This document shows, in pieces, positions 3,918 through 15,527 of a stretch of 64,000 nucleotides of DNA. The stretch covers positions 12,244-76,243 of the IMG/VR virus record IMGVR_UViG_3300036770_003728, one strand, 5' to 3'. The notes beneath the pieces are model-generated. The model did not search any database, was not told the DNA's origin, and saw only the letters and a program-made list of their open reading frames with translations. A program made the position numbers and the translations under genes. The stretch comes from a virus. Numbering within the stretch: position 1 is the first letter of the stretch; every line of letters begins with the position of its first letter.

Positions 3918-6900
3918 TCATTCGTACATTCTCCAAGTAGTTCCTGTCCAAAATAATCCAATGCTGTCGCCATTGGTATTAATAACCAATGTACCACTGC
4001 TGGAATTACTGGTATTGGTAATTGTGGTTCCACTACCAGCTAAAATCACAAAACTGTTAGCAGTGTAAGCACCCCCGGCATCGGCAAAAAATACTGCATC
4101 TCCTGGGGCCACTGCTGGTGGGACCGGTAAGGTAGCTGTAATTGATCCGTTGTTGGTGTTAATACCATATCTACGGTTGGGTATCACTGCAAAATTAGCT
4201 GTCCTGATTTCAAATTTTTGTTCTAGGTTATTGGCTGGTGGCTGGACTCGCTCATTACCGTCAACATTGATTGCCCCAGACATCGCTGCATGCACTGTAC
4301 AACGATAACGCAGTCTGGCTGGTGCATTCATTGGCACAGTGAATATGATTTCGCCTGAAGCTGCACCATTATTGGTTACACCAACGGTGTATGCAGTTAG
4401 TGTTGGCCCATCTTCGCTGCCAGTCTCTTCCACAATCTGGAATGGATGTCCTCCGCCACTGTTGTTAATGAATCTATAGGTTTCACCACGACGTAAATTC
4501 AATGTTGGATTGTTAGTGGCTGTGGCAAAGAATCTGCCATCAGCAGCAAAAACATATGCGCTGCTGCCATTGGCCGTGATTGTAAACACTGCCGGACGAT
4601 TAATACCGGGGTTATTTTGTACCTTGACATTGGCTGTAGCAAAGTTTACATTGCCGGCTACAGTGTCGACTGGTACCATCTGTCCTTCAGGAGTAAACAC
4701 AATTGCCTGCGGATTTGGTCTTGATGGTGCTGGCGGTGGAACAAAAGCAATTAACCCAGTGTCAGCATCAGTCTTGATCAAGGCATTGCCAAAATTAATG
4801 GTACTGCCGCTTAAGTACAAGTCTCTCCAACGTCGTGTGTCTGATCCTAAGTCATAGGTTACATTACTGGATGGAATCAAATTGGCTGAAATATTACCAT
4901 CTAGATAATTAGGTACATCAGTATAAGCAGGTATAGTAGGTGTACCAGTTAGATCAGCATAAGCACCAGTTCTTGCCACATCAGCAAATCCAGTTAAACC
5001 TGCACCGCTGCCATTGATATTGCCACTGAAACTGATATTGCCTGCTGCTACGTTTCCTGTATTGGTTAACAAGTAGTCGGCCACATTAGCATTAGCATAT
5101 ACCTGAGACTGTAGTGTAACTATAGCAGATTGCTGTGACGCTGCATTGGCACTTAAACTATCTATAGTGGTCTGCTGGCTTTCACTATTGGCTGTTAATG
5201 TAGCCAATGATGTTGCTTGAGCAGCAGCATTAGCCACCAAATCGGTAATTTCTGTGGCTTGAGCAGCGGCATTAGCACTTAAACTATCTATAGTGGTTTG
5301 CTGGCTTTCACTATTGGCTGTTAATGTAGCCAATGATGTTGTTTGAGCAGAAGCATTAGCCCACAAATTATTAATTTCTGTGGCCTGAGCAGCAGCATTA
5401 GCTGTCAATGTATCTATAGTGGTTTGCTGGCTTTCACTATTGGCTGTTAATGTAGCCAATGATGTTGTTTGAGCAGCAGCATTAGCCCACAAATTAGTAA
5501 TTTCTGTGGCTTGAGCAGCAGCATTAGCTATCCATGCTACATTGGCTGCTATAACATTAGCAGCAATATTACCTTCAGCAGCAGTAGCACGCACTGTTTC
5601 AGTACTAACCGCAGCATTGATAATGGTATCAACGCTTTGATAGTTGGCAATAATTTCTGCCAAACTGTTTAGTGCCGTAGCATCAACATTATTTAGAATA
5701 CTATCAATTTGAGTTTGTAGATTGGCTGTATTGGCTTGCCAGGCTGTGTTGGCTGCGGTAAATGTAGCATTAACTGAAGTTATCACTGCCGATATGTTAC
5801 TGGTGCGTGCCACATTGGCAGCATCAATATTGGCTTGTAACTGAGTAATAAACTCTGGCCAAAACGCAGTGGTTTGAACACGACCATCTAAGAATTTAAC
5901 ATTGCCCACATAAGGCAAATTAGCACCTGCACTAGTGGTAACTTGTAAGCCATTACCAAAATCAGAGCTAACTACAGTGTTACCCATATTAATGGTATTG
6001 CCTACGTATGCAGTACGGAACGCTGCTACACTAGATCCTAAGTCGTGCGCTGCTGTGGTTTTGGGTATAACATTACCAGGTACATTAACATTACCTGTGC
6101 GCTCTAAATCCATACTCAACAGTGTGTTAGTCAACTTACTAACAATGCTTTGAGCCTTGAATCGTAGTTTGTAGGTATACAAGTATTGATAGGTAAACAC
6201 AGTGCCTGGTACATTAACCAATGGGCCCGGCATGGCTTGATCTACAGCAAATGTTATAGGACGATAAAACACTGCTGGGCTGCTGCCTGCTACCTGTGTT
6301 AAGCTACCAATGCTGCCTTGGCTACGAATTACCAGGCTATTAACAAACGGAGTTAATACTTCGATAACTTCACCACCGCTGAATGTAACCAATAAGTTAT
6401 ACAGTTCAGTATTTTCGTAAGCATAGAAAATCACAGTACTACTGGTAGTCCATTCAATGGCTTCTGCACCAATTTGGTCGGCTAGTTCTCTGGTAACTAT
6501 ATCTACATTACCATAATCACCGACTCTAACAGTAGCGTTACCCATGTGCAGACCAGTGTTGGCAATATAAATATTGCTCCAACGCAGACTTTCACTACCC
6601 AAATCAAATTGATCTGTGCTTAGTGGTGTAACATTGCCTGGAAGTGTAAGATTGCCAGTGGCTGTTAGGTTAGCATAGAAACTGCCGTTAACAAGATTGT
6701 TTTCAGTATTGTTGCCCAGCTGGCTTATAACCGAGTTAATGTTACTGCGTAGGTTGCCTTCTTCGGAGATAGCACGAGCTGTTTCTGCTGCTATACTGGT
6801 TGCAAGAGCAGCAGCATTACTAAGTCTAGTGCTTTCATTGGCTAATATACTAGTAACTATAGCACTGGCATTGGCTACACGAGCTGCACTTTCACTATTA

Positions 6901-9812
6901 ATAGCACTTTGTAAACTGCTGGCATTGGCAATACTTGCTACATTAGCAGCATCGATGTTGGCCTGTAGTGCTATGTCTGCTGCTAATCTTGTAGCAGCTT
7001 CAGCATTGATATTAGCAGTGATTGCCGAAGTGGTTCCTGAACCTAAGCTGGTAATTTGAGCTTGGAGTGCAGTTTCAGCAGCAGTGGCTCTTGTAGTTTC
7101 TGTGATTACGCTTTGAGCTAGGGCTGCTGCATTGGCAGTTCTATTAGCGGTCTCGGTAGTAATAAAGCTAGGCAAGAACGCCGTGGTCTGTACAGTACTG
7201 TCCGGGAATGTTACATTACCTTTTACAGCAATTGGTGTACCACCACTGGTCTCAGCACGTAGTCCATTTACTGGATCAACTGTTAAACTGGCTGTGCCAA
7301 AGTATACAGTACTGCTACTAATAAACAAACTACGGAAGGCCTGGCTAGCACTACCTAAATCTTGAGTTAAATGATTTTTTGGTAGTATATGACCTGGTAC
7401 TTCGAATGTACCACCAACTGCATTAAGATTAGCACTGTATCCACCAGCCAGTAACTGATGTTCTGTACCTTGTAGAACAGTAACATTAGCATGTATGGCT
7501 GCTTCAGCAGCAGTAGCTCTAGCTGTTTCAGCTGTGACACTGGCAGCAAGAGCGCTGGCATTGGCGATTCGGTTCGCCGATTCAGTGTTGAGATTATTGG
7601 TTATTGTGGTATCAGCCAGTATACGTGCTGATTCTTCTGTGTTGACATCATTGACACGGTTGGTAATTTCCAAAGCAATGTTGGCAAATATGGCAGCAAC
7701 GTTATTAGTCAATGCTGTGTTGGTATTTGTAACTTGTGTTTGTAAGCTGGTTTCGGTTGTGGTAGCACGAGTTACTTCAGCAGTGATATTACTTTGTAGA
7801 TTAACGTCTGCTGCTGCACGAGTAGCTGCTTCTGCATTAATAGCAGCAGTTAATGCAATATTAGCTGCATTCAAACTACCTGTCAGTACACTGGTATTGC
7901 TGATTCGTGTAGCAGTTTCAGTGTTTAGGTTGGCCTGTACAGCTGATTCAGCAGCTTGAGCACGACTACGCTCTAAATTAATGTCCGTATTGAGCTGTGT
8001 GCTCAGTGCTGTGATAGCACCTTGCAGCGTATTATCCGATGCTTGGAAAGCGGCTACCACTTCAACCAAACTGTTTAGCGCCGTGGCATCTACGTTAACC
8101 AAAACATTGTTGATTTGCGTTTGAAGATTAGTAACATTAGCTACACGTTGTACGATTTCATTGTCTAACGCGGCTGTTAATACACTAACATTTGCAATTC
8201 TAGCAATATTAGCAGCATCTAACGAAGCCTGTAGTGCTGTATCACCAGCTGCTCTAGCAATGTTAGCTGCGGTTAAGGCCTGTAAAGTTGTAGCACTGTT
8301 GGCTTGCCATGCTGTATTAGTTGTATTAATGTTGTTCTGCAACGAAGTAATCACTGCGCTGACATTGCTTTCTCTGGCTGTGTTAGCAGCAGCGAAAGTG
8401 TTATTCATATTAGTGATCACTGCACTGATGTTACTGATTCGATCAATGTTGGCCGCAGTGAACGTATTATTCATACTGGTAATAACTGCGCTGATATTGC
8501 TAACACGATCAATGTTAGCTTGGTTAAATGTGTTATTAACCGAAGTAATCACTGCGCTGATGTTAGTGGTACGATCCAAATTGGCCTGCGTAAAGGTACT
8601 ATTAACCAAAGTGATCACGCTGCTGATGTTGCTGATTCTGGCTACATTAGCACTGTCTAAGTTATTCTGTAATAATGTTTCAGCAGCGACGGCACGAGTT
8701 CGTTCTACAATAACATTGGCTATACGAGCACTGCTTTCAGCTGCCAAGTTAGCAGTATGACTAATATTAGCAGCAATCAGGCTGGCTGCTAATGCACTGG
8801 TATTGGCTACCCTGGCCACGCTCTCAGCAGTGATATTAGCTCTGAGATTACCTTCTTCGCTAATAGCACGACTGGTTTCAATGGTCAAGTTACTCTTGAT
8901 ATTGTTATCTTCAACAATACGTTGAGCACGTTCGGTATTAATGTCTAGTTGTAAGTTACCCTCGGCGCTGATCGCACGATTGGCTTCCACAATCACATTA
9001 GCTATTCTAGCTGCACTTTCTGCTGCCAAGTTGGCAGTCATACTTACATTAGCAGCCTGCAAACTAGCGGCCAATGCACTAGCATTGGCTGTACGAGCAG
9101 CGGTTTCAGCTGCAATATTAGCCTGTAAATTAACATCACCGGTTATTCTAGCACTGATTTCGACGGACAAATTGGCTGCGTTTTGAGCTGCCACTACACG
9201 AATTGCAGTATCTTCTGCCAATCTTATATTAGCTTCAGCTACTACTGCATTAGCAGTAGCACTAATATTGCTGTTGATTAGGTTATCATTGGCTAAACGA
9301 ATATTAGCTTCATTATTAATAGCTGTTTGTAGAGCTGCTTCGGCAGCATAGGCTCTAACTGTTTCTGCACCGATATTACTTTGAAGAGCCGAAACTGAAT
9401 TTGCTACAAATCCGTAAAAGTCAGGATCATTGTTGATACTTGTTGCAATGCCTTCAAGGGTACTAAGCTCAATAGGATAAACAGCACCAATGGTAGCCAC
9501 TAAATTACTATTGACTTCTTCTACTCTGCCTAAGGTATTGGCCAAGTTGGCCAATATAACTACCAGACCTTGTTGCACATACAGGTTACTATAGAACTCG
9601 CTATAGGAATTGGCCTGCATGTCGACCACACCGTCGGTGGGAATTGGGGCACCGCCCGGCGTTACTCCATCATGTATACGCAAGGTTTTAAGCGTGGTAT
9701 CCACTGTGATCTCTCCCAGTGGGCCTACATAGGTGCTGCTTGTAGCTAGATTACCTCTTTTTAATAGAATCTGTCTAGCATCAAGGCTGATAACTTGGTT
9801 GTTAATAGTCAT
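3918..9812 (-). CDS. Long coiled-coil tail fibre/adhesin (1964 aa) with Mtd_N-like N-terminus and cupredoxin-like C-terminal domain
   Basis: N-terminal ILLKRG...GEITVDTTLKTLRIHDGVTPGG (Mtd N-terminal type); Ala/Asn coiled coil; four DLGS-containing beta modules; HPF...CTVHAAM motif; C-terminal module resembling T4 gp34 repeats. Confidence 0.85.
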   Translation of the reverse strand: MTINNQVISLDARQILLKRGNLATSSTYVGPLGEITVDTTLKTLRIHDGVTPGGAPIPTDGVVDMQANSYSEFYSNLYVQQGLVVILANLANTLGRVEEVNSNLVATIGAVYPIELSTLEGIATSINNDPDFYGFVANSVSALQSNIGAETVRAYAAEAALQTAINNEANIRLANDNLINSNISATANAVVAEANIRLAEDTAIRVVAAQNAANLSVEISARITGDVNLQANIAAETAARTANASALAASLQAANVSMTANLAAESAARIANVIVEANRAISAEGNLQLDINTERAQRIVEDNNIKSNLTIETSRAISEEGNLRANITAESVARVANTSALAASLIAANISHTANLAAESSARIANVIVERTRAVAAETLLQNNLDSANVARISNISSVITLVNSTFTQANLDRTTNISAVITSVNNTFNQANIDRVSNISAVITSMNNTFTAANIDRISNISAVITNMNNTFAAANTARESNVSAVITSLQNNINTTNTAWQANSATTLQALTAANIARAAGDTALQASLDAANIARIANVSVLTAALDNEIVQRVANVTNLQTQINNVLVNVDATALNSLVEVVAAFQASDNTLQGAITALSTQLNTDINLERSRAQAAESAVQANLNTETATRISNTSVLTGSLNAANIALTAAINAEAATRAAADVNLQSNITAEVTRATTTETSLQTQVTNTNTALTNNVAAIFANIALEITNRVNDVNTEESARILADTTITNNLNTESANRIANASALAASVTAETARATAAEAAIHANVTVLQGTEHQLLAGGYSANLNAVGGTFEVPGHILPKNHLTQDLGSASQAFRSLFISSSTVYFGTASLTVDPVNGLRAETSGGTPIAVKGNVTFPDSTVQTTAFLPSFITTETANRTANAAALAQSVITETTRATAAETALQAQITSLGSGTTSAITANINAEAATRLAADIALQANIDAANVASIANASSLQSAINSESAARVANASAIVTSILANESTRLSNAAALATSIAAETARAISEEGNLRSNINSVISQLGNNTENNLVNGSFYANLTATGNLTLPGNVTPLSTDQFDLGSESLRWSNIYIANTGLHMGNATVRVGDYGNVDIVTRELADQIGAEAIEWTTSSTVIFYAYENTELYNLLVTFSGGEVIEVLTPFVNSLVIRSQGSIGSLTQVAGSSPAVFYRPITFAVDQAMPGPLVNVPGTVFTYQYLYTYKLRFKAQSIVSKLTNTLLSMDLERTGNVNVPGNVIPKTTAAHDLGSSVAAFRTAYVGNTINMGNTVVSSDFGNGLQVTTSAGANLPYVGNVKFLDGRVQTTAFWPEFITQLQANIDAANVARTSNISAVITSVNATFTAANTAWQANTANLQTQIDSILNNVDATALNSLAEIIANYQSVDTIINAAVSTETVRATAAEGNIAANVIAANVAWIANAAAQATEITNLWANAAAQTTSLATLTANSESQQTTIDTLTANAAAQATEINNLWANASAQTTSLATLTANSESQQTTIDSLSANAAAQATEITDLVANAAAQATSLATLTANSESQQTTIDSLSANAASQQSAIVTLQSQVYANANVADYLLTNTGNVAAGNISFSGNINGSGAGLTGFADVARTGAYADLTGTPTIPAYTDVPNYLDGNISANLIPSSNVTYDLGSDTRRWRDLYLSGSTINFGNALIKTDADTGLIAFVPPPAPSRPNPQAIVFTPEGQMVPVDTVAGNVNFATANVKVQNNPGINRPAVFTITANGSSAYVFAADGRFFATATNNPTLNLRRGETYRFINNSGGGHPFQIVEETGSEDGPTLTAYTVGVTNNGAASGEIIFTVPMNAPARLRYRCTVHAAMSGAINVDGNERVQPPANNLEQKFEIRTANFAVIPNRRYGINTNNGSITATLPVPPAVAPGDAVFFADAGGAYTANSFVILAGSGTTITNTSNSSSGTLVINTNGDSIGLFWTGTTWRMYE
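5109..5528 (-). repeat. Ten 42-bp (14-aa) coding tandem repeats with a 126-bp higher-order period
   Basis: ANAAAQATEITNLW / ANAAAQTTSLATLT / ANSESQQTTIDTLT occurs three times plus one extra unit; near-identical DNA. Confidence 0.9.
8322..8651 (-). repeat. Five 66-bp (22-aa) coding tandem repeats
   Basis: Units of the type ANIDRISNISAVITxMNNTFTA. Confidence 0.85.
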
Positions 9813-10318
9813 TGTATAGTCCCGCCGTCAATTATTGTGAAATCATTACCTTCTGGTTCGCCTTCTTGCGGAGGCATGTCTGCGTAGTACGCAGGAATTA
9901 CGTACAAATCCAATGGTACATTATAGTTATTGTCTGTAAATGCTGGCTGTTCGCGATCATCTTCTCGACGTATAGCACGGAAAGTTAATTTATACTGTCT
10001 TTGTGTCAGCGAATTAACTATATCCTTGGTTATAACAAATGTACCGATCCCATTGTTTTCGTTGATAAAGTTTACACCAAAACTTTGTACAGTTAATTGA
10101 TTCAATGGATCTTGAATGTCTATACGCATGGTATACCCAGCCATATTCACTGGCTTTTGATCTTGATTTCTTACTCGTACTTGTACAGGGTTATCAATTC
10201 CCTGATATACTGTTACCGGCTTAGTGTACACGTCTCGGTTCCTTGTGGCAAAAATCGTAGGATCCCATATTGTTGCTGTCATTTTAATAGGATATAAATA
10301 AGTTTGGATTGTAATCAT
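9809..10318 (-). CDS. Putative virion structural protein (possible fibre/baseplate adaptor)
   Basis: Start refined to ATG 10318, 8 nt below a TAAATA box; beta-rich; ATGA-coupled to the fibre gene. Confidence 0.65.
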   Translation of the reverse strand: MITIQTYLYPIKMTATIWDPTIFATRNRDVYTKPVTVYQGIDNPVQVRVRNQDQKPVNMAGYTMRIDIQDPLNQLTVQSFGVNFINENNGIGTFVITKDIVNSLTQRQYKLTFRAIRREDDREQPAFTDNNYNVPLDLYVIPAYYADMPPQEGEPEGNDFTIIDGGTIQ

Positions 10319-10332
10319 TATTTTACTATTTA
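10293..10332. promoter_or_regulatory. Face-to-face T4-type late promoters
   Basis: TATAAATA on + at 10293-10300 and TAAATA on - at 10327-10332. Confidence 0.6.
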
Positions 10333-10339
10333 TTGCAAA

Positions 10340-10708
10340 GTGGAAGAAATTAAAAAGCTGCTCGAACAGTATCCGTTCATAACTTATCTTATTTACGGCG
10401 GCAACGAATACATCGGAATCATACAAAATTCCGACGAACTTATCACAACGATTTATGATTTTGGCAGCTTGAAAGACCCTGATCAAAAACAAAAGTTCTT
10501 GGACCTAGGTGAACAATGGTGGTGGGAGTCAAATCGCATGATCCCTATCAACGTTTTTCTCAAACGTGATTGGTCAGAATTCAAGGCCTGCGTAAAGACC
10601 ATGAACAGCAAAGACGTAGATATACGCTTTGGTCCTCAGGTTAATCTTAAAGAAATGGCTGCTAAACGCAGCAAACGCAGATCAATTACTTTGGTTCGTA
10701 AGCTCTAA
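10340..10708 (+). CDS. Hypothetical protein
   Basis: GTG start (VEEIKKLL) downstream of TATAAATA; protein-like composition (WWWESNRMIPI). Confidence 0.7.
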   Translation: MEEIKKLLEQYPFITYLIYGGNEYIGIIQNSDELITTIYDFGSLKDPDQKQKFLDLGEQWWWESNRMIPINVFLKRDWSEFKACVKTMNSKDVDIRFGPQVNLKEMAAKRSKRRSITLVRKL

Positions 10709-11257
10709 CAAATTCATGTGCACTGCTACTAGATGAGCATAGCTCACAGCATGCGCTTTTTTGAAATAATACCCAGATTCTGGCTTTTGCCATATGGTCT
10801 CAGCTACTTCACGCCATGGACGACCTATTAGGTGTCTTTTACCCGGCCTTATAATAGCCAAGAACATGGCCAACCTGGCTATAGAATCCACTGGCTCAGG
10901 CATACGACCTAAGGTATCCCAATGATTACCAATATGAATTAACTGTGCACAGAATTCTTGATCCAACAGTTTGTGCCAATTCGGTTTTTGTTGCATCAGT
11001 TCCGTTAACTGTTGTTCACTGTGAATTTGATTATATACTGATACATTCAAAAAATCTAGTTTAATATACCCACGTTGTTCAGCACTGCGAAAGTCAATAG
11101 TAGCAGTGTTGGTTATAGGATCATGTGGAATCTCAGTGACATAAACACCAGTATTATGTGGAACATTGCCATCCAGGCTAGCACGCCTATACTGAATATG
11201 GCGTAAGATACTGGCACGATCACCAAAGTCAATGTCTACATCGCTGGTAAATTTCAT
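10682..11257 (-). CDS. Miniature DNA polymerase III alpha (DnaE/family C)-like catalytic core, 191 aa
   Basis: Collinear DnaE motifs SDVDIDF, HNTGVY, GYIKLDFLN, AIIRPGK and YYFKKAHAVSYA. Confidence 0.85.
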   Translation of the reverse strand: MKFTSDVDIDFGDRASILRHIQYRRASLDGNVPHNTGVYVTEIPHDPITNTATIDFRSAEQRGYIKLDFLNVSVYNQIHSEQQLTELMQQKPNWHKLLDQEFCAQLIHIGNHWDTLGRMPEPVDSIARLAMFLAIIRPGKRHLIGRPWREVAETIWQKPESGYYFKKAHAVSYAHLVAVHMNLLELTNQSN

Positions 11258-11934
11258 AGTCCACCTAATTCTAAAATTTGTCTAGCGAATGCAACATCAT
11301 CACTTAGATCTTTGAACTTGGATTGCCAGTGTGCAGGATCAATGAACTCAATCACAGTGGCTACTTGATCAGTATTTAATCGACTTAAAAAGTCAATCCC
11401 ACTGTCACAGTTGTACACAGCCCAAGCACTAATACGACCAGTGGTGATATGATAGCATATACGATTTTCGTTAACCAGTCTAAAGTAATCCCTATACCCA
11501 TTCTTGTACTCAGGGTGTTGATACATATAGTCTACCATGGTTTCCATACTACGTTCAAGAGCATCTTTAACTGATTCTTTACGTAAGTATTCTACTAACC
11601 AACTAGTGTAAAACGTATCTGAAGTCCAACGATCTAACGGACGATTATTTTTGAGCAGCCAACGAGTGTACGCAGCAAGATTTACACAGTGTACACTATG
11701 ACAGTACCTACCAAACTTTACAAAGGCTGTGTAATAACTACTAGCTACGAAATCTTGGTAATCACGTTTACGTCCACTTTGTGTGGTTTCATAAAAGATC
11801 CTGTAGGCTTGCAGTGCCCATTGTACCCCAATTTCGTTCTGCTGTTGATGTCTGCGCTTGGGTTCACAACTGTGACTGGTCAGCGTGGTTTCTTTAGCAT
11901 AGGTTTTATGACAGTATTGGCATTCAAAAGGCAT
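11254..11934 (-). CDS. Hypothetical protein with N-terminal C2H2/C2HC-type zinc finger
   Basis: F-x-C-x2-C-x3-Y-x5-L-x2-H-x-C; overlaps both neighbours. Confidence 0.75.
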   Translation of the reverse strand: MPFECQYCHKTYAKETTLTSHSCEPKRRHQQQNEIGVQWALQAYRIFYETTQSGRKRDYQDFVASSYYTAFVKFGRYCHSVHCVNLAAYTRWLLKNNRPLDRWTSDTFYTSWLVEYLRKESVKDALERSMETMVDYMYQHPEYKNGYRDYFRLVNENRICYHITTGRISAWAVYNCDSGIDFLSRLNTDQVATVIEFIDPAHWQSKFKDLSDDVAFARQILELGGL

Positions 11935-12379
11935 TTCTTATTTCTTTGTCGTCCCAACCCAATGATTGTAGATAGGCTTCTAGATCTTTACGATTAGTGT
12001 TATTGACCAATATAGCCAATTCTTCTCTATTAAGATCTGGAAACTGTTCGGCTAGAACTTTTTGTATAGGATTAGTCTTGTGCCGACTACCCATCCAATA
12101 GTGCTTTTGACGACCCATGTCTGGGCTCACTGACGTACACAGTAACCACTGCAACTTAGGATGGCGCCCAATGGCAAAAAAGTCTTGATTAACACGATCG
12201 TTTTGAGCTCGCAAATACCATTCTTGTAAATCTCTGTTGCCTTCTACACTGGCAGCATACTTCATCATTAAGTACGTACTAAACTTTTTACGTTCTTCGT
12301 CAGTGAGTTCATCATAGAACCCACGGTCTTTGGTATCCAGTGCTGCCAGCTCTTGTGCTAGTGTTAGCTTGGCGCTCAT
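11924..12379 (-). CDS. Possible clamp-loader small subunit (T4 gp62-like)
   Basis: Size and the KKFSTYLMMKY...N...HPKLQW...W pattern loosely resemble gp62 homologues; replication context. Confidence 0.45.
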   Translation of the reverse strand: MSAKLTLAQELAALDTKDRGFYDELTDEERKKFSTYLMMKYAASVEGNRDLQEWYLRAQNDRVNQDFFAIGRHPKLQWLLCTSVSPDMGRQKHYWMGSRHKTNPIQKVLAEQFPDLNREELAILVNNTNRKDLEAYLQSLGWDDKEIRNAF

Positions 12380-12888
12380 TACCAGGCCCTTCCAAAATCA
12401 ATGACTTCGCTAACTCTACTGATATCTTTAACAAAGTATGCACACAGTGGACTATCGGTATCAGTTTCCAAAGGCACAGCCAATAATTGGCCGGCTTTGA
12501 GTTTAGGAAAATACCACTTGACATCTTGATAAATGTCCACTATTTCAACTTGATGAAACTCGGGCCTGTAACTTTTAATAGGGTTAAAACAAAACGCTGA
12601 AAAGCCACGATCATTAATGGAAGTCAATGGCACCACTTCAAGATCACCGATATCGGTTTCACCAATTAGTAATTGCCAATCCACTGGCATTTTTACTGTG
12701 TGCTCACCTATGCGTAGCACTAGAGCCGGGCTATTAAAACTTTCTAAGAAGATTAAAGGTATAAAGAAATAATCCGGAGTTTTAGGATCTGAATTATCCA
12801 ATATACAAAAACGTAGATCTTCGATTTCATCGGGGATCTCATTAAGGTCGTAACTACGATTGGTATCTAGGTTTAGTATTCTTGACAT
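12379..12888 (-). CDS. Hypothetical beta-rich protein (possible degenerate Hint fold)
   Basis: Tightly packed ORF; strand pattern reminiscent of Hint domains but without catalytic residues. Confidence 0.7.
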   Translation of the reverse strand: MSRILNLDTNRSYDLNEIPDEIEDLRFCILDNSDPKTPDYFFIPLIFLESFNSPALVLRIGEHTVKMPVDWQLLIGETDIGDLEVVPLTSINDRGFSAFCFNPIKSYRPEFHQVEIVDIYQDVKWYFPKLKAGQLLAVPLETDTDSPLCAYFVKDISRVSEVIDFGRAW

Positions 12889-12896
12889 AATTGTTA

Positions 12897-14354
12897 TTAT
12901 AGATAATTTACACGCTCAAGGTCAAATGGATAATTTGCCTCTCGATAAAAATTCTTACGCTGTGTTAGGTGCCGCTTGGCAAATTTGCAACTACTGGTTA
13001 TGTCCCAGATTTGGACGAAGTCTTTGTCTGACGCTCGCCTAATACCACGCCCAATGCTTTGTATAACACGTACAAAACTTTTACCAGGCTCAACAAGCAC
13101 AAGATTAAAAATCCTAGGAATATTGATGCCAACTGCTGCCACACCGTAGGTTGCGACAATAACTTTATCTGCTGACGTTGCCACTTCGTCATATTCTTCC
13201 TGCCTATCAGTGCTTTTGGTAGCACCATTTACAAACACAGCATCACGGATGCCGGCAACTAGTGCCTGCCCGGCGGCCACACGATCAATTAGGATTAATG
13301 TATTGCCAGTACCACGTATACGTTCTACTAAACTACTGATATAGTCTAGTCTATCTGCATTTTCTAACAGATATTTAAGCTCGCTTTGATAATTTGTAAA
13401 CTCTTTGTGATCTTGTAATTGTACAATGTTTACATGACAATTGGCCAGCACACCTTGTTCTTGTAACTCGCTGGCGCTGAGTTGTCCTACCACTGGACCC
13501 AAAGTACAGGTTAAAGCCAGTCGATTATAATCTTCTTTGGGTACTGTACCTGTCAAGCCCCAACGTATAGGCACATGACTCATTACACCTGTTAACAATG
13601 TTTTAAGGGCATCAGCTTTGGCCATATGCACTTCGTCGACAATCACGCATATCACATCTTGTAAAAATTCTTCTATGCTGATTTCAACTTCGTGACTTTT
13701 GGTATTTTTAAGTAGTATATTAAGACTTTGCCATGTGCAGATAGTATGCTGCCGGCCAAATTCTTTACGATCACCAAAGTATACACCAACATCTAATCCC
13801 ATGTTCACGTAGTCACGCTCGGTTTGGGTAACCAAGCTCTTGTTAGGCACTATGACCACGCTGCGTCCATAAGGTTGCACACTTGTGCTAAGAGCAGCGG
13901 TCATGATGGTCTTGCCTGCTCCTGTGGCTACTTCCTGTATACACTGTGGTGTGGATAAGAATCTGTTGACGATCTCAACTTGGTAATCTCTCAGTAAGAT
14001 AGGTTCATGTTGATTAGGATGACCCGTAGGCCAAGCACGACTGGCGAAACTTTGCTCATTGACCTGTGGGAATTCAAAACTGGTACGATACGACCTAAGA
14101 TCTTCTAAATCTATGTCATATCCGTGTGCTTCTATCACAGGAATAATTTCTGGCAACAGATTAATATAAGTAGCACCAGCCAAACTAAAATAGCTGACTT
14201 TACCATCCCATCTCCCAAGTCGCACTGCTGGCAAATATCGAGCACCTGGTATTTCAAATTTGAATTGATTGGTTAATGTACGTCGTAGGTTAACATCCAA
14301 GCCTTCAACTTTAACATTAACTTCGTCACGTATGAATAATTTACATTCCGGCAT
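12897..14354 (-). CDS. uvsW: UvsW-like SF2 helicase
   Basis: LRDYQ, ATGAGKT, DEVH, GLTGT and QSIGRGIR motifs. Confidence 0.9.
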   Translation of the reverse strand: MPECKLFIRDEVNVKVEGLDVNLRRTLTNQFKFEIPGARYLPAVRLGRWDGKVSYFSLAGATYINLLPEIIPVIEAHGYDIDLEDLRSYRTSFEFPQVNEQSFASRAWPTGHPNQHEPILLRDYQVEIVNRFLSTPQCIQEVATGAGKTIMTAALSTSVQPYGRSVVIVPNKSLVTQTERDYVNMGLDVGVYFGDRKEFGRQHTICTWQSLNILLKNTKSHEVEISIEEFLQDVICVIVDEVHMAKADALKTLLTGVMSHVPIRWGLTGTVPKEDYNRLALTCTLGPVVGQLSASELQEQGVLANCHVNIVQLQDHKEFTNYQSELKYLLENADRLDYISSLVERIRGTGNTLILIDRVAAGQALVAGIRDAVFVNGATKSTDRQEEYDEVATSADKVIVATYGVAAVGINIPRIFNLVLVEPGKSFVRVIQSIGRGIRRASDKDFVQIWDITSSCKFAKRHLTQRKNFYREANYPFDLERVNYL

Positions 14355-15441
14355 CTTGTGTCTGCTGTGTGTAATAGATAATTTTATCTGCTGATTGTAA
14401 CATTTGTTGCCTGCGGTTTCCTATCATTAAGGTGTGGGTGGTTACTAATAAGGGCATGTTTTTGTCTGCACTGCGCCAATGGTTAAAATATATCACTGGT
14501 GCAGAATGCCCGCTATTGTCTGTACGCCTGTCTATAATATCTTCTTTTGGTACATGACGTACCATTTCTTTGCGTAATACGCTGGCTCCTGATTCGTAGA
14601 TATAAATGGGATATCGATTAGTAACACGAGCATAATCAAATATTGGTTCGAGATCTATGCTGCCGCTGTATTCTAAGTTTATGCTTTTTGGTCCCAGTAA
14701 ACTGGCTGCTGAATCGTTAATACTGGTGTCTACCAGACCATATACGTCAGGGTGTACTGTATAGTCTAGCTGACCAGATAAATCAATCAAGTTGATTAAA
14801 TTGCCTAAGCTGAATCCACCATGCTCATTGATATAGTCAATGAGACTGTTGGCAGCATTGGTTATGCTTAATTCTTGGTTTTGATAAATTAATTCTATAG
14901 CATGGTTTCGATAAGGTGCCATGTCTTGCTGTAGTTGCAAAAGATCGGCGCTGATAGAAAAATTATGTTTTATACCGAACTCTATGACCCAATCTATCCT
15001 AGGCTCAGTTAATGTACATACCCAAGCTCGCAGATCTCGATCAAATTGTAGCGTTCCAGGATACTCAGAGACAGCAGCACGTATCACACTAATTAAATTT
15101 TGGTCATAAGGAAAGCGTATACATATTTTGTTATCTTGTATACTAATAGAATTAGTACGATCTATGTTACGTATAGGCAACTTAAAAACAGCATTATCAA
15201 TCAGTCCGCTGACATCATATCCATTGGCCGCCCACTGTTTACGATATTTGACTACTATTTTGTGTGCTAACAATGCCTGTCTATCAGTGAACCCTAGTTG
15301 TCTTTGAATTTGTTCTGCCATGCTGTTGACTATGGGCTCATCATACCGTGCCAACTTGATCGGCGGATCCACAGGAGGCCAGCTAAATGTATCGGTAGCC
15401 ATCAGCTCAATGTAATCTTCAATATAGGAAAGAGTTTTCAT
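14341..15441 (-). CDS. Hypothetical protein
   Basis: Long ORF; start refined to ATG 15441, 6 nt below TATAAT. Confidence 0.75.
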   Translation of the reverse strand: MKTLSYIEDYIELMATDTFSWPPVDPPIKLARYDEPIVNSMAEQIQRQLGFTDRQALLAHKIVVKYRKQWAANGYDVSGLIDNAVFKLPIRNIDRTNSISIQDNKICIRFPYDQNLISVIRAAVSEYPGTLQFDRDLRAWVCTLTEPRIDWVIEFGIKHNFSISADLLQLQQDMAPYRNHAIELIYQNQELSITNAANSLIDYINEHGGFSLGNLINLIDLSGQLDYTVHPDVYGLVDTSINDSAASLLGPKSINLEYSGSIDLEPIFDYARVTNRYPIYIYESGASVLRKEMVRHVPKEDIIDRRTDNSGHSAPVIYFNHWRSADKNMPLLVTTHTLMIGNRRQQMLQSADKIIYYTQQTQDAGM

Positions 15442-15447
15442 TGTATT

Positions 15448-15476
15448 ATTATAACTTATATATTTAGATAAGTCAA
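15448..15476 (-). promoter_or_regulatory. sigma70-like promoter TTGACT-17-TATAAT with TAAATA in the spacer
   Basis: Boxes read directly. Confidence 0.8.
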
Positions 15477-15498
15477 AAAAAAGTGCCCCTAAGGGCAC
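15475..15498 (-). terminator. Rho-independent terminator
   Basis: GTGCCC-4 nt-GGGCAC stem followed by T8 on the minus strand. Confidence 0.85.
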
Positions 15499-15527
15499 CA
15501 AAATAGAGAGGCTTATGATAAACTGGT

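Follow-up and report, generated by a model that had tools for sequence, protein, structure and literature searches.

The window analysed here is a 64,000-nucleotide (nt) stretch of viral DNA, positions 12,244 to 76,243 of the IMG/VR record IMGVR_UViG_3300036770_003728, which has 76,243 b in all and is estimated to represent about 22% of a genome. On its minus strand, at 10682-11257, lies an intact open reading frame (ORF) of 191 amino acids (aa) with an ATG start and its own stop codon. The predicted protein begins with M-K-F-T-S-D-V-D, and contains motifs of the bacterial replicase DnaE in the DnaE order: S5-D6-V-D8-I-D10-F, H34-N-T-G37-V-Y, K66-L-D68-F-L, R137-P-G, and Y163-Y-F-K-K-A-H169-A. 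The ATG forms an ATGA overlap (11254-11257) with the stop codon of the upstream ORF for a 226-aa C2H2-type protein, and the 3' end overlaps a convergent 134-aa ORF by 27 nt. The first-pass annotation of the window, which presented the gene as a stand-alone mini-DnaE, had reported the ORF, the motif order, the start and stop, and both overlaps, and all of these were confirmed. We assign the gene, with a probability of roughly 0.8, to the 'minimal DNA polymerase III alpha' that group 2.2 (RaK2/PBECO4/PA5oct/Atu_ph07-type) jumbo phages encode as two polypeptides, of which it would specify the C-terminal unit (C-unit). The partner polypeptide is called the N-unit below. Features of the locus are collected in Table 1.

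Table 1. Positions of the C-unit gene, its key codons and its neighbours in the window
Feature	Position	Strand	Evidence
C-unit (metal-binding palm strands and reduced fingers), 191 aa	10682..11257	-	ORF, phrog_11778, PDB profile matches, AlphaFold2, VIA-align
Codons 6-10, D-V-D-I-D, equivalent to E. coli D401, D403, D405	11228..11242	-	Invariant (n=73); aligned to E. coli 401-405
Codons 66-68, K-L-D, equivalent to E. coli K553, D555 (third catalytic carboxylate)	11054..11062	-	K66 and D68 invariant; alignment
Codons 137-138, R-P of RPG finger motif, equivalent to E. coli 639-641	10844..10849	-	Invariant; alignment
Codons 166-169, K-K-A-H of FKKAHA finger motif, equivalent to E. coli N757-K758-S759-H760	10751..10762	-	K166 and H169 at least 90% conserved; alignment
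C2H2-type protein, 226 aa, ATGA-coupled to C-unit	11254..11934	-	phrog_11058, E = 1e-50; weak zf-C2H2 Pfam matches
Two conserved small genes (151 aa, 169 aa) between UvsW and C2H2 genes	11924..12888	-	phrog_11758, phrog_11279
UvsW-type superfamily 2 (SF2) DNA helicase, 485 aa, near head of tightly packed run	12897..14354	-	Pfam ResIII, DEAD, Helicase_C; phrog_16, E = 1.6e-75
Convergent gene, 134 aa	10304..10708	+	phrog_11637, E = 1.4e-32

Homology, conservation and predicted fold of the C-unit

A PHROGs search placed residues 4-185 of the protein on positions 6-192 of phrog_11778 ('DNA polymerase', a 197-position profile) with E = 5.7e-55; the weak secondary matches were to PHROGs of full-length Pol III alpha. 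Conservation was assessed in an alignment of 73 representative homologues of 30-66% identity (alignment A1). Residues D6, D8, D10, K66, D68, R137, and P138 are invariant in all 73, and H34, G37, K140, K166, and H169 are conserved in at least 90% of them. When the A1 profile was compared with the PDB, the sole matches at E values up to 1 were Pol III alpha chains from E. coli, M. tuberculosis, and T. aquaticus, the best at E = 4e-5. Three blocks were collinear with the E. coli enzyme (profile positions 4-20 with 399-417, 56-140 with 540-641, and 151-178 with 739-767), and this profile alignment gives the equivalences of D6, D8, D10, K66, and D68 listed in Table 1.

The structure predicted by AlphaFold2 from A1 had a predicted local distance difference test score (pLDDT) of 96.4 and a predicted template modelling score (pTM) of 0.89. 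The top 12 Foldseek matches to this model were all family C polymerases, with probabilities up to 0.99. Likewise, the top 14 VIA-align entries were PolC and DnaE only, with 182-188 of the 191 residues aligned at Z 8.5-9.6. Among them were PolC 3f2b (Z 9.6, root-mean-square deviation 3.4, 184 aligned), T. aquaticus 3e0d (Z 9.5), M. tuberculosis DnaE1 5lew (Z 9.4), and E. coli 2hnh (Z 8.5, 182 aligned, chain 397-781); the first fold beyond family C scored Z 3.7. By this model the whole C-unit is predicted to be DnaE segment 397-781 minus roughly 200 residues of thumb and fingers. Its 191 residues are taken up entirely by palm strands and reduced fingers. The profile and structural alignments thus upheld the first description of a drastically reduced family C module in which the catalytic Asp residues are kept; PHP and the thumb are gone, as are the parts for clamp binding, the OB domain, and most of the fingers. 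Since the C-unit starts at about E. coli 397, it is also without the N-terminal palm half and its GRGS triphosphate-binding loop (E. coli ~272-393). A complete palm on a single chain, with GS loop, DxD, and third Asp together, was not found in the C-unit, and the GRGS loop sits on the N-unit.

We surveyed the distribution of the family by tblastn, which found the C-unit in 96 phage records, each with at least 80% query coverage; identity was 40-47% among the matches listed. Every genome listed was that of a jumbo phage of 284-490 kb, and these included PA5oct-like phages, Atu_ph07, Phosso, PBECO4/121Q-like phages, RaK2-like Klebsiella phages, and Erwinia, Xanthomonas, and Yersinia phages. In a collection of 5.8 billion proteins the family formed 6441 clusters at 90% identity within the length window of 105-335 aa, and an all-length search gave 358 matches among 50% identity representatives, nearly all of 185-215 aa. 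The ratio of nonsynonymous to synonymous substitution rates (dN/dS) had a median of 0.087 by NG86 (90 gene pairs from IMG/VR loci, 0.05 < dS < 1.5). Metagenome contigs from three other runs showed 12 substitutions in the C-unit gene, 10 of them synonymous and the others I144V and Q89K, with no insertions or deletions. The C-unit family is large and under purifying selection, and did not arise by recent deletion. The claim that the catalytic triad is intact was well founded, with its Asp residues invariant among the 73 homologues and dN/dS at about 0.09.

Near-identical DNA for window positions 9800-15500 (0.36-0.72 of sampled words) was present in marine, lake, freshwater, and lagoon metagenome runs from five studies apart from the likely subsurface source, and the phage of this window appears to be widespread in aquatic habitats. 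No RNA run was listed among the holders of near-identical DNA, and megablast of the locus against the phage collection gave no match.

The partner half and its natural fusions

The piece that the C-unit lacks was found as a separate small gene of about 174 aa (169-177 aa) in all four large relatives examined: Phosso, PAC2, G001 (356,865 b, 100% complete, with a C-unit 62% identical to that of the window), and G002. One small ORF per genome passed PF07733, scoring 37-46.5 bits against a cut-off of 23.9. The N-unit and C-unit genes lie at 97.5 and 321 kb in Phosso, 173 and 129 kb in PAC2, 44 and about 160 kb in G001, and 25.5 and about 243 kb in G002, respectively, which amounts to distances of 43-224 kb. 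The term 'stand-alone' therefore did not hold, since the GRGS-bearing half of the palm is missing from the 191-aa protein and is encoded by a dedicated gene in relatives. The proposed T4-like lineage with a family B polymerase (PolB) fits what was found, UvsW being encoded in the window and PolB in each of the four relatives.

Before its stop codon the N-unit reads ...V-W-G-x-G-R-G-S-S...E-E-F-L-K (or ...D-E-F-L-N). The match to DnaE covers E. coli 330-392, with the end of the N-unit at about 393, and the C-unit resumes at about 397; judged from this alignment, the split point would be the loop just before the strand that bears D401 and D403. In size the two families are comparable, with at least 7987 clusters at 90% identity for the N-unit and 6441 for the C-unit, and among phages the host tally of the N-unit closely tracks that of the C-unit. 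The surroundings of the N-unit gene are conserved in Phosso, PAC2, G002, and G001 (L003, L004, L093, and L094), where two genes come after it, the first for a protein of 105-153 aa in which the motif '...N-A-R-G-D...G-G' is shared, the second for a small conserved protein of 108-124 aa.

As had been stated for the window, no other DnaE fragment is visible; the whole 76,243-b record gave no match to PF07733, the N-unit, or PolB (PF00136). The absence of the N-unit from the contig is uninformative, because the record covers only about 22% of the genome and extends only 22.9 kb downstream of the C-unit gene. The distance from the C-unit gene to the N-unit gene further downstream is 43.5 kb in PAC2 and about 31 kb in PBECO4.

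Natural fusions join the two halves in a single chain. One of the 150 best representatives, P0150 (375 aa), matches the C-unit over residues 190-372. Up to ...K-E-F-I-K, its N-terminal part shares 44% identity with the N-unit of PAC2; a 10-residue linker follows, and then D-F-D-I-D. Two further proteins from ENA and Logan sources, P0390 and P0391 (81% and 78% identical), have the same fused layout, giving three clusters of 375-376 aa in all. In a phylogenetic tree the three fused C-halves formed one clade (SH-aLRT 100) nested in a supported clade (95) of C-units of split size. This tree came from a quick maximum-likelihood search, with a midpoint root for drawing only; a careful search did not finish. 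The topology suggests a single secondary fusion event. A related-locus scan with the fused form found none in the viral collection, and in the metagenome collection it returned one split C-unit and two bacterial full-length dnaE genes.

A model of the fused protein was built from a shallow alignment (A5); mixed alignments of N-units, C-units, and fusions (A2 and A4) were misaligned when many C-units were included. Residues 78-375 of the model aligned to DnaE structures with Z 18.5 for 5lew (285 aligned), Z 18.0 for 3e0d, and Z 15.1 for 2hnh (chain 272-773), about twice the values obtained with the C-half alone. After family C, the next neighbours were Pol-beta-type terminal nucleotidyltransferases (Cid1, CutA, and GLD-2) at Z 2.3-3.6. 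The alignment of the fused model indicates, therefore, that N-unit and C-unit together reproduce the palm-plus-fingers core of DnaE.

Assembly of the two units and relation to known polymerases

On the basis of these results, we propose how the two units work together. The C-unit would bring the metal ligands (D6, D8, and D68) and K66 on its palm strands, along with shortened fingers (RPG and FKKAHA). From the N-unit would come the remainder of the palm, which is of the Pol-beta-like nucleotidyltransferase type, with the triphosphate-holding GRGS loop, and the two chains most likely assemble non-covalently into one active site. They are not spliced to each other: there is no intein and no spare sequence between the N-unit end at ~393 and the C-unit start at ~397. 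Trans-splicing by a split intein was considered and rejected, the units being contiguous on E. coli 392/397 and no intein families being found in Pfam. We infer that the pair acts as a low-processivity, template-directed auxiliary DNA polymerase in repair or recombination-dependent synthesis, because it has no thumb, clamp-binding motif, OB domain, or PHP proofreader and a family B replicase is encoded alongside. If active, the pair would be the smallest functional core of the bacterial replicase family, and would show that an active site of the Pol-beta fold can be built across two chains. Such activity would bear on the evolution of family C, on the role of a second polymerase in T4-like giant phages, and on enzyme minimisation.

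Several observations weigh against this assignment. The Pfam scan of the 191-aa protein gave no PF07733 (DNA_pol3_alpha) match at E values up to 1 and nothing else of relevance. For the phage of the window itself, the presence of an N-unit is extrapolated from relatives, as the contig carries none. Two relatives, G003 and G005, have a C-unit-like gene (55-56% identical to that of the window) together with a PHP-less DnaE. In G003, an IMG/VR contig of 131,614 b, a complete PHP-less DnaE of 565 aa is encoded at L091:1438-3135, about 8 kb from the C-unit-like gene, and the same is seen at the cut end of G005 (L092). The classical N-unit was not found in the available 38% and 22% of the G003 and G005 genomes, respectively. 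The model of the fused protein is of moderate confidence, with a pLDDT of 66 and part of the palm below 50. With the thumb and most of the fingers gone, it is uncertain that the enzyme carries out ordinary templated synthesis, and the literature yielded no published experiment or activity assay on any member of the family.

The enzyme itself is already known, and the mini-DnaE is not the novelty it was first taken for. Iyer, Anantharaman, Krishnan, Burroughs, and Aravind (2021, Viruses 13:63, PMC7824862) described from sequence how group 2.2 jumbo phages encode a split, minimal Pol III alpha. It accompanies a family B replicase, a role in repair or recombination is likewise suggested, and the C-terminal unit is named the 'Mg2+- and DNA-template-binding' unit. 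The window's C-unit agrees with the published enzyme in size, motifs, and loss of all accessory DnaE domains. It belongs to the same lineage, with 40-47% identity to the PA5oct, Atu_ph07, Phosso, and PBECO4 orthologues, and shares the synteny after UvsW and relatives with a separate N-unit and PolB. Nothing essential differs: the window's gene is an orthologue from an uncultured phage of aquatic metagenomes, with an N-unit predicted to lie outside the contig. The family has a PHROG of its own and is annotated in GenBank ('DnaE-like DNA polymerase III alpha' in Phosso). The PaBG paper treats other Pol III subunits and not the split minimal enzyme. Relative to the consulted portion of PMC7824862, the present analysis adds that the two halves are, rarely, fused in nature, where exactly the split falls (E. 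coli ~393 / ~397), and that translational coupling to the C2H2 gene is conserved.

Compared with bacterial DnaE (2hnh, 2hpi/3e0d, and 5lew) and PolC (3f2b), the C-unit keeps in collinear order the palm strands of the acidic triad, the K553 equivalent, and the RPG and FNKSHS finger motifs. It has, however, only about one sixth of their length and no PHP, thumb, beta-clamp motif, HhH, OB, or tau-binding domain. Relative to E. coli DnaE, the stretch 418-539 (about 120 aa) has shrunk to about 36 aa and the stretch 642-738 (about 97 aa) to about 10 aa. Two polypeptides share the palm, and PF07733 misses the C-unit, whereas it matches the 565-aa DnaE of G003 over positions 17-260 with E = 3.7e-43. 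The latter is also a phage family C polymerase without PHP, with the same motifs and in a genome that has a C-unit-like gene as well, but everything lies on one chain: the palm is complete, with a GS loop and DxD of its own, the fingers are longer, and an insert as long as a thumb is present.

A family C polymerase made from two distant genes has a precedent in cyanobacteria. In Synechocystis and Nostoc, dnaE is split into DnaE-N and DnaE-C, which are joined by a naturally split intein. The phage enzyme, in contrast, has no intein, is split inside the palm active site, and is predicted to be a non-covalent heterodimer.

Two alternatives concern what the protein does. The N-unit and C-unit together could be an active nucleotidyltransferase that is not a templated polymerase, serving untemplated tailing, primer synthesis, or synthesis of a nucleotide signal. 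This would suit the loss of the thumb, most of the fingers, and the clamp and OB modules, the PolB replicase already present in relatives, and the terminal nucleotidyltransferases that come next after family C, even though these score only Z 2.3-3.6. We consider it unlikely, as the DnaE finger motifs (RPG and FxKSHA), needless for template-independent chemistry, are kept near-invariant, and the similarity to family C (Z 15-18) is far above that to any terminal transferase. It is very unlikely, moreover, that the 191-aa protein adds nucleotides alone, whether in priming, repair, or terminal transfer, as a stand-alone minimal family C enzyme. Its own start and stop, its invariant acidic triad, and the confident model of the single chain are in accord with that idea. 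However, it has nothing equivalent to E. coli 272-393, and so lacks the GRGS loop with which transferases of the Pol-beta fold hold the triphosphate; a dedicated gene for exactly this piece co-occurs in all large relatives examined, and is found naturally fused to the C-half.

Gene neighbourhood of the C-unit

The C-unit gene stands at the end of a run of genes that overlap or abut. Across 80 IMG/VR loci the order is kept as 386-aa protein, UvsW, 169-aa protein, 151-aa protein, C2H2 protein, C-unit, and convergent 134-aa gene. The C2H2 gene was present in 79 of these loci, the 151-aa and convergent genes in 77 each, the 169-aa gene in 69, and UvsW in 62, many of the contigs being cut short. 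The gene order in PAC2 is that of the window, including the convergent overlap. The annotation of Phosso shows no UvsW gene in the 6 kb upstream of its C-unit gene, and the phage retains the two halves of the polymerase. For the C2H2 protein, 93 phage records were found, with a host tally nearly that of the C-unit. The UvsW_N Pfam score of the 485-aa helicase was just below the cut-off.

A sigma-70-like promoter candidate (11 of 12 matches) at 15476-15448 on the minus strand shortly precedes the probable ATG of the 386-aa gene, and a second promoter-like site lies before the 169-aa gene. Co-transcription of the run is plausible, and its conservation would fit a role of the polymerase in repair or recombination.

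The order of these genes bears on a third alternative, in which the C-unit is completed by its operon neighbours, the C2H2, 151-aa, and 169-aa proteins, instead of a DnaE-derived partner. The ATGA coupling to the C2H2 gene, the order from UvsW to the C-unit kept in most of the 80 loci and in PAC2, and the nearly matching phyletic tally of the C2H2 protein all speak for such a complex. Nevertheless, we hold it to be highly improbable. No neighbour has DnaE or nucleotidyltransferase similarity, and a PDB sequence search and the protein atlas matched the C2H2 protein only to its own viral clusters and to generic zinc-finger proteins, with no similarity to a polymerase part. The true missing half of the palm exists as a separate gene, Phosso keeps both halves with no UvsW annotated nearby, and all these genes are core to the phage clade, so their co-occurrence is not specific. 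The first-pass suggestion of one subunit of a split polymerase completed by co-transcribed neighbours was therefore right about the split subunit, as the separate N-unit gene and the fusions attest, and not supported as to the neighbours.

An extension of the two-polypeptide reading can be put forward tentatively. The C2H2 protein, possibly with the 151-aa and 169-aa proteins, might be a third, DNA-binding subunit that replaces the contacts of the thumb and clamp and tethers the N-unit and C-unit to UvsW-driven recombination intermediates. We regard this as a doubtful proposal. If true, it would mean a dedicated repair/recombination polymerase of three or more chains, different from any characterised family C holoenzyme.

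The same 80 loci speak to the last alternative, a decayed and catalytically dead remnant of full-length dnaE after recent deletion, which is brought to mind by the shortness of the protein next to the 1160-aa E. coli enzyme and can be virtually dismissed, as no full-length dnaE occupies the C-unit position in any of them, the thousands of homologues (6441 clusters, with the 358 representatives at 50% identity nearly all of 185-215 aa) have a length of about 190 aa, none of the catalytic residues varies, and dN/dS is about 0.09.

Some minor features of the region were also observed. The tail-to-tail overlap of the C-unit and convergent genes, kept in 77 of the 80 loci and in PAC2, leaves no room for a terminator between them. 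At the other end of the run, a terminator-like hairpin with a T-run lies at 15499-15482 (minus strand), directly followed by the promoter-like site at 15476-15448, and the 386-aa gene probably starts downstream of the TTG listed for it at 15501. Beyond the convergent gene, an ORF of 1964 aa at 3918-9812 (minus strand) is rich in degenerate Ala/Asn/Ile repeats resembling coiled coils and probably encodes a giant tail fibre; the gene before it, of 227 aa, gave a weak BppU_N-like match.

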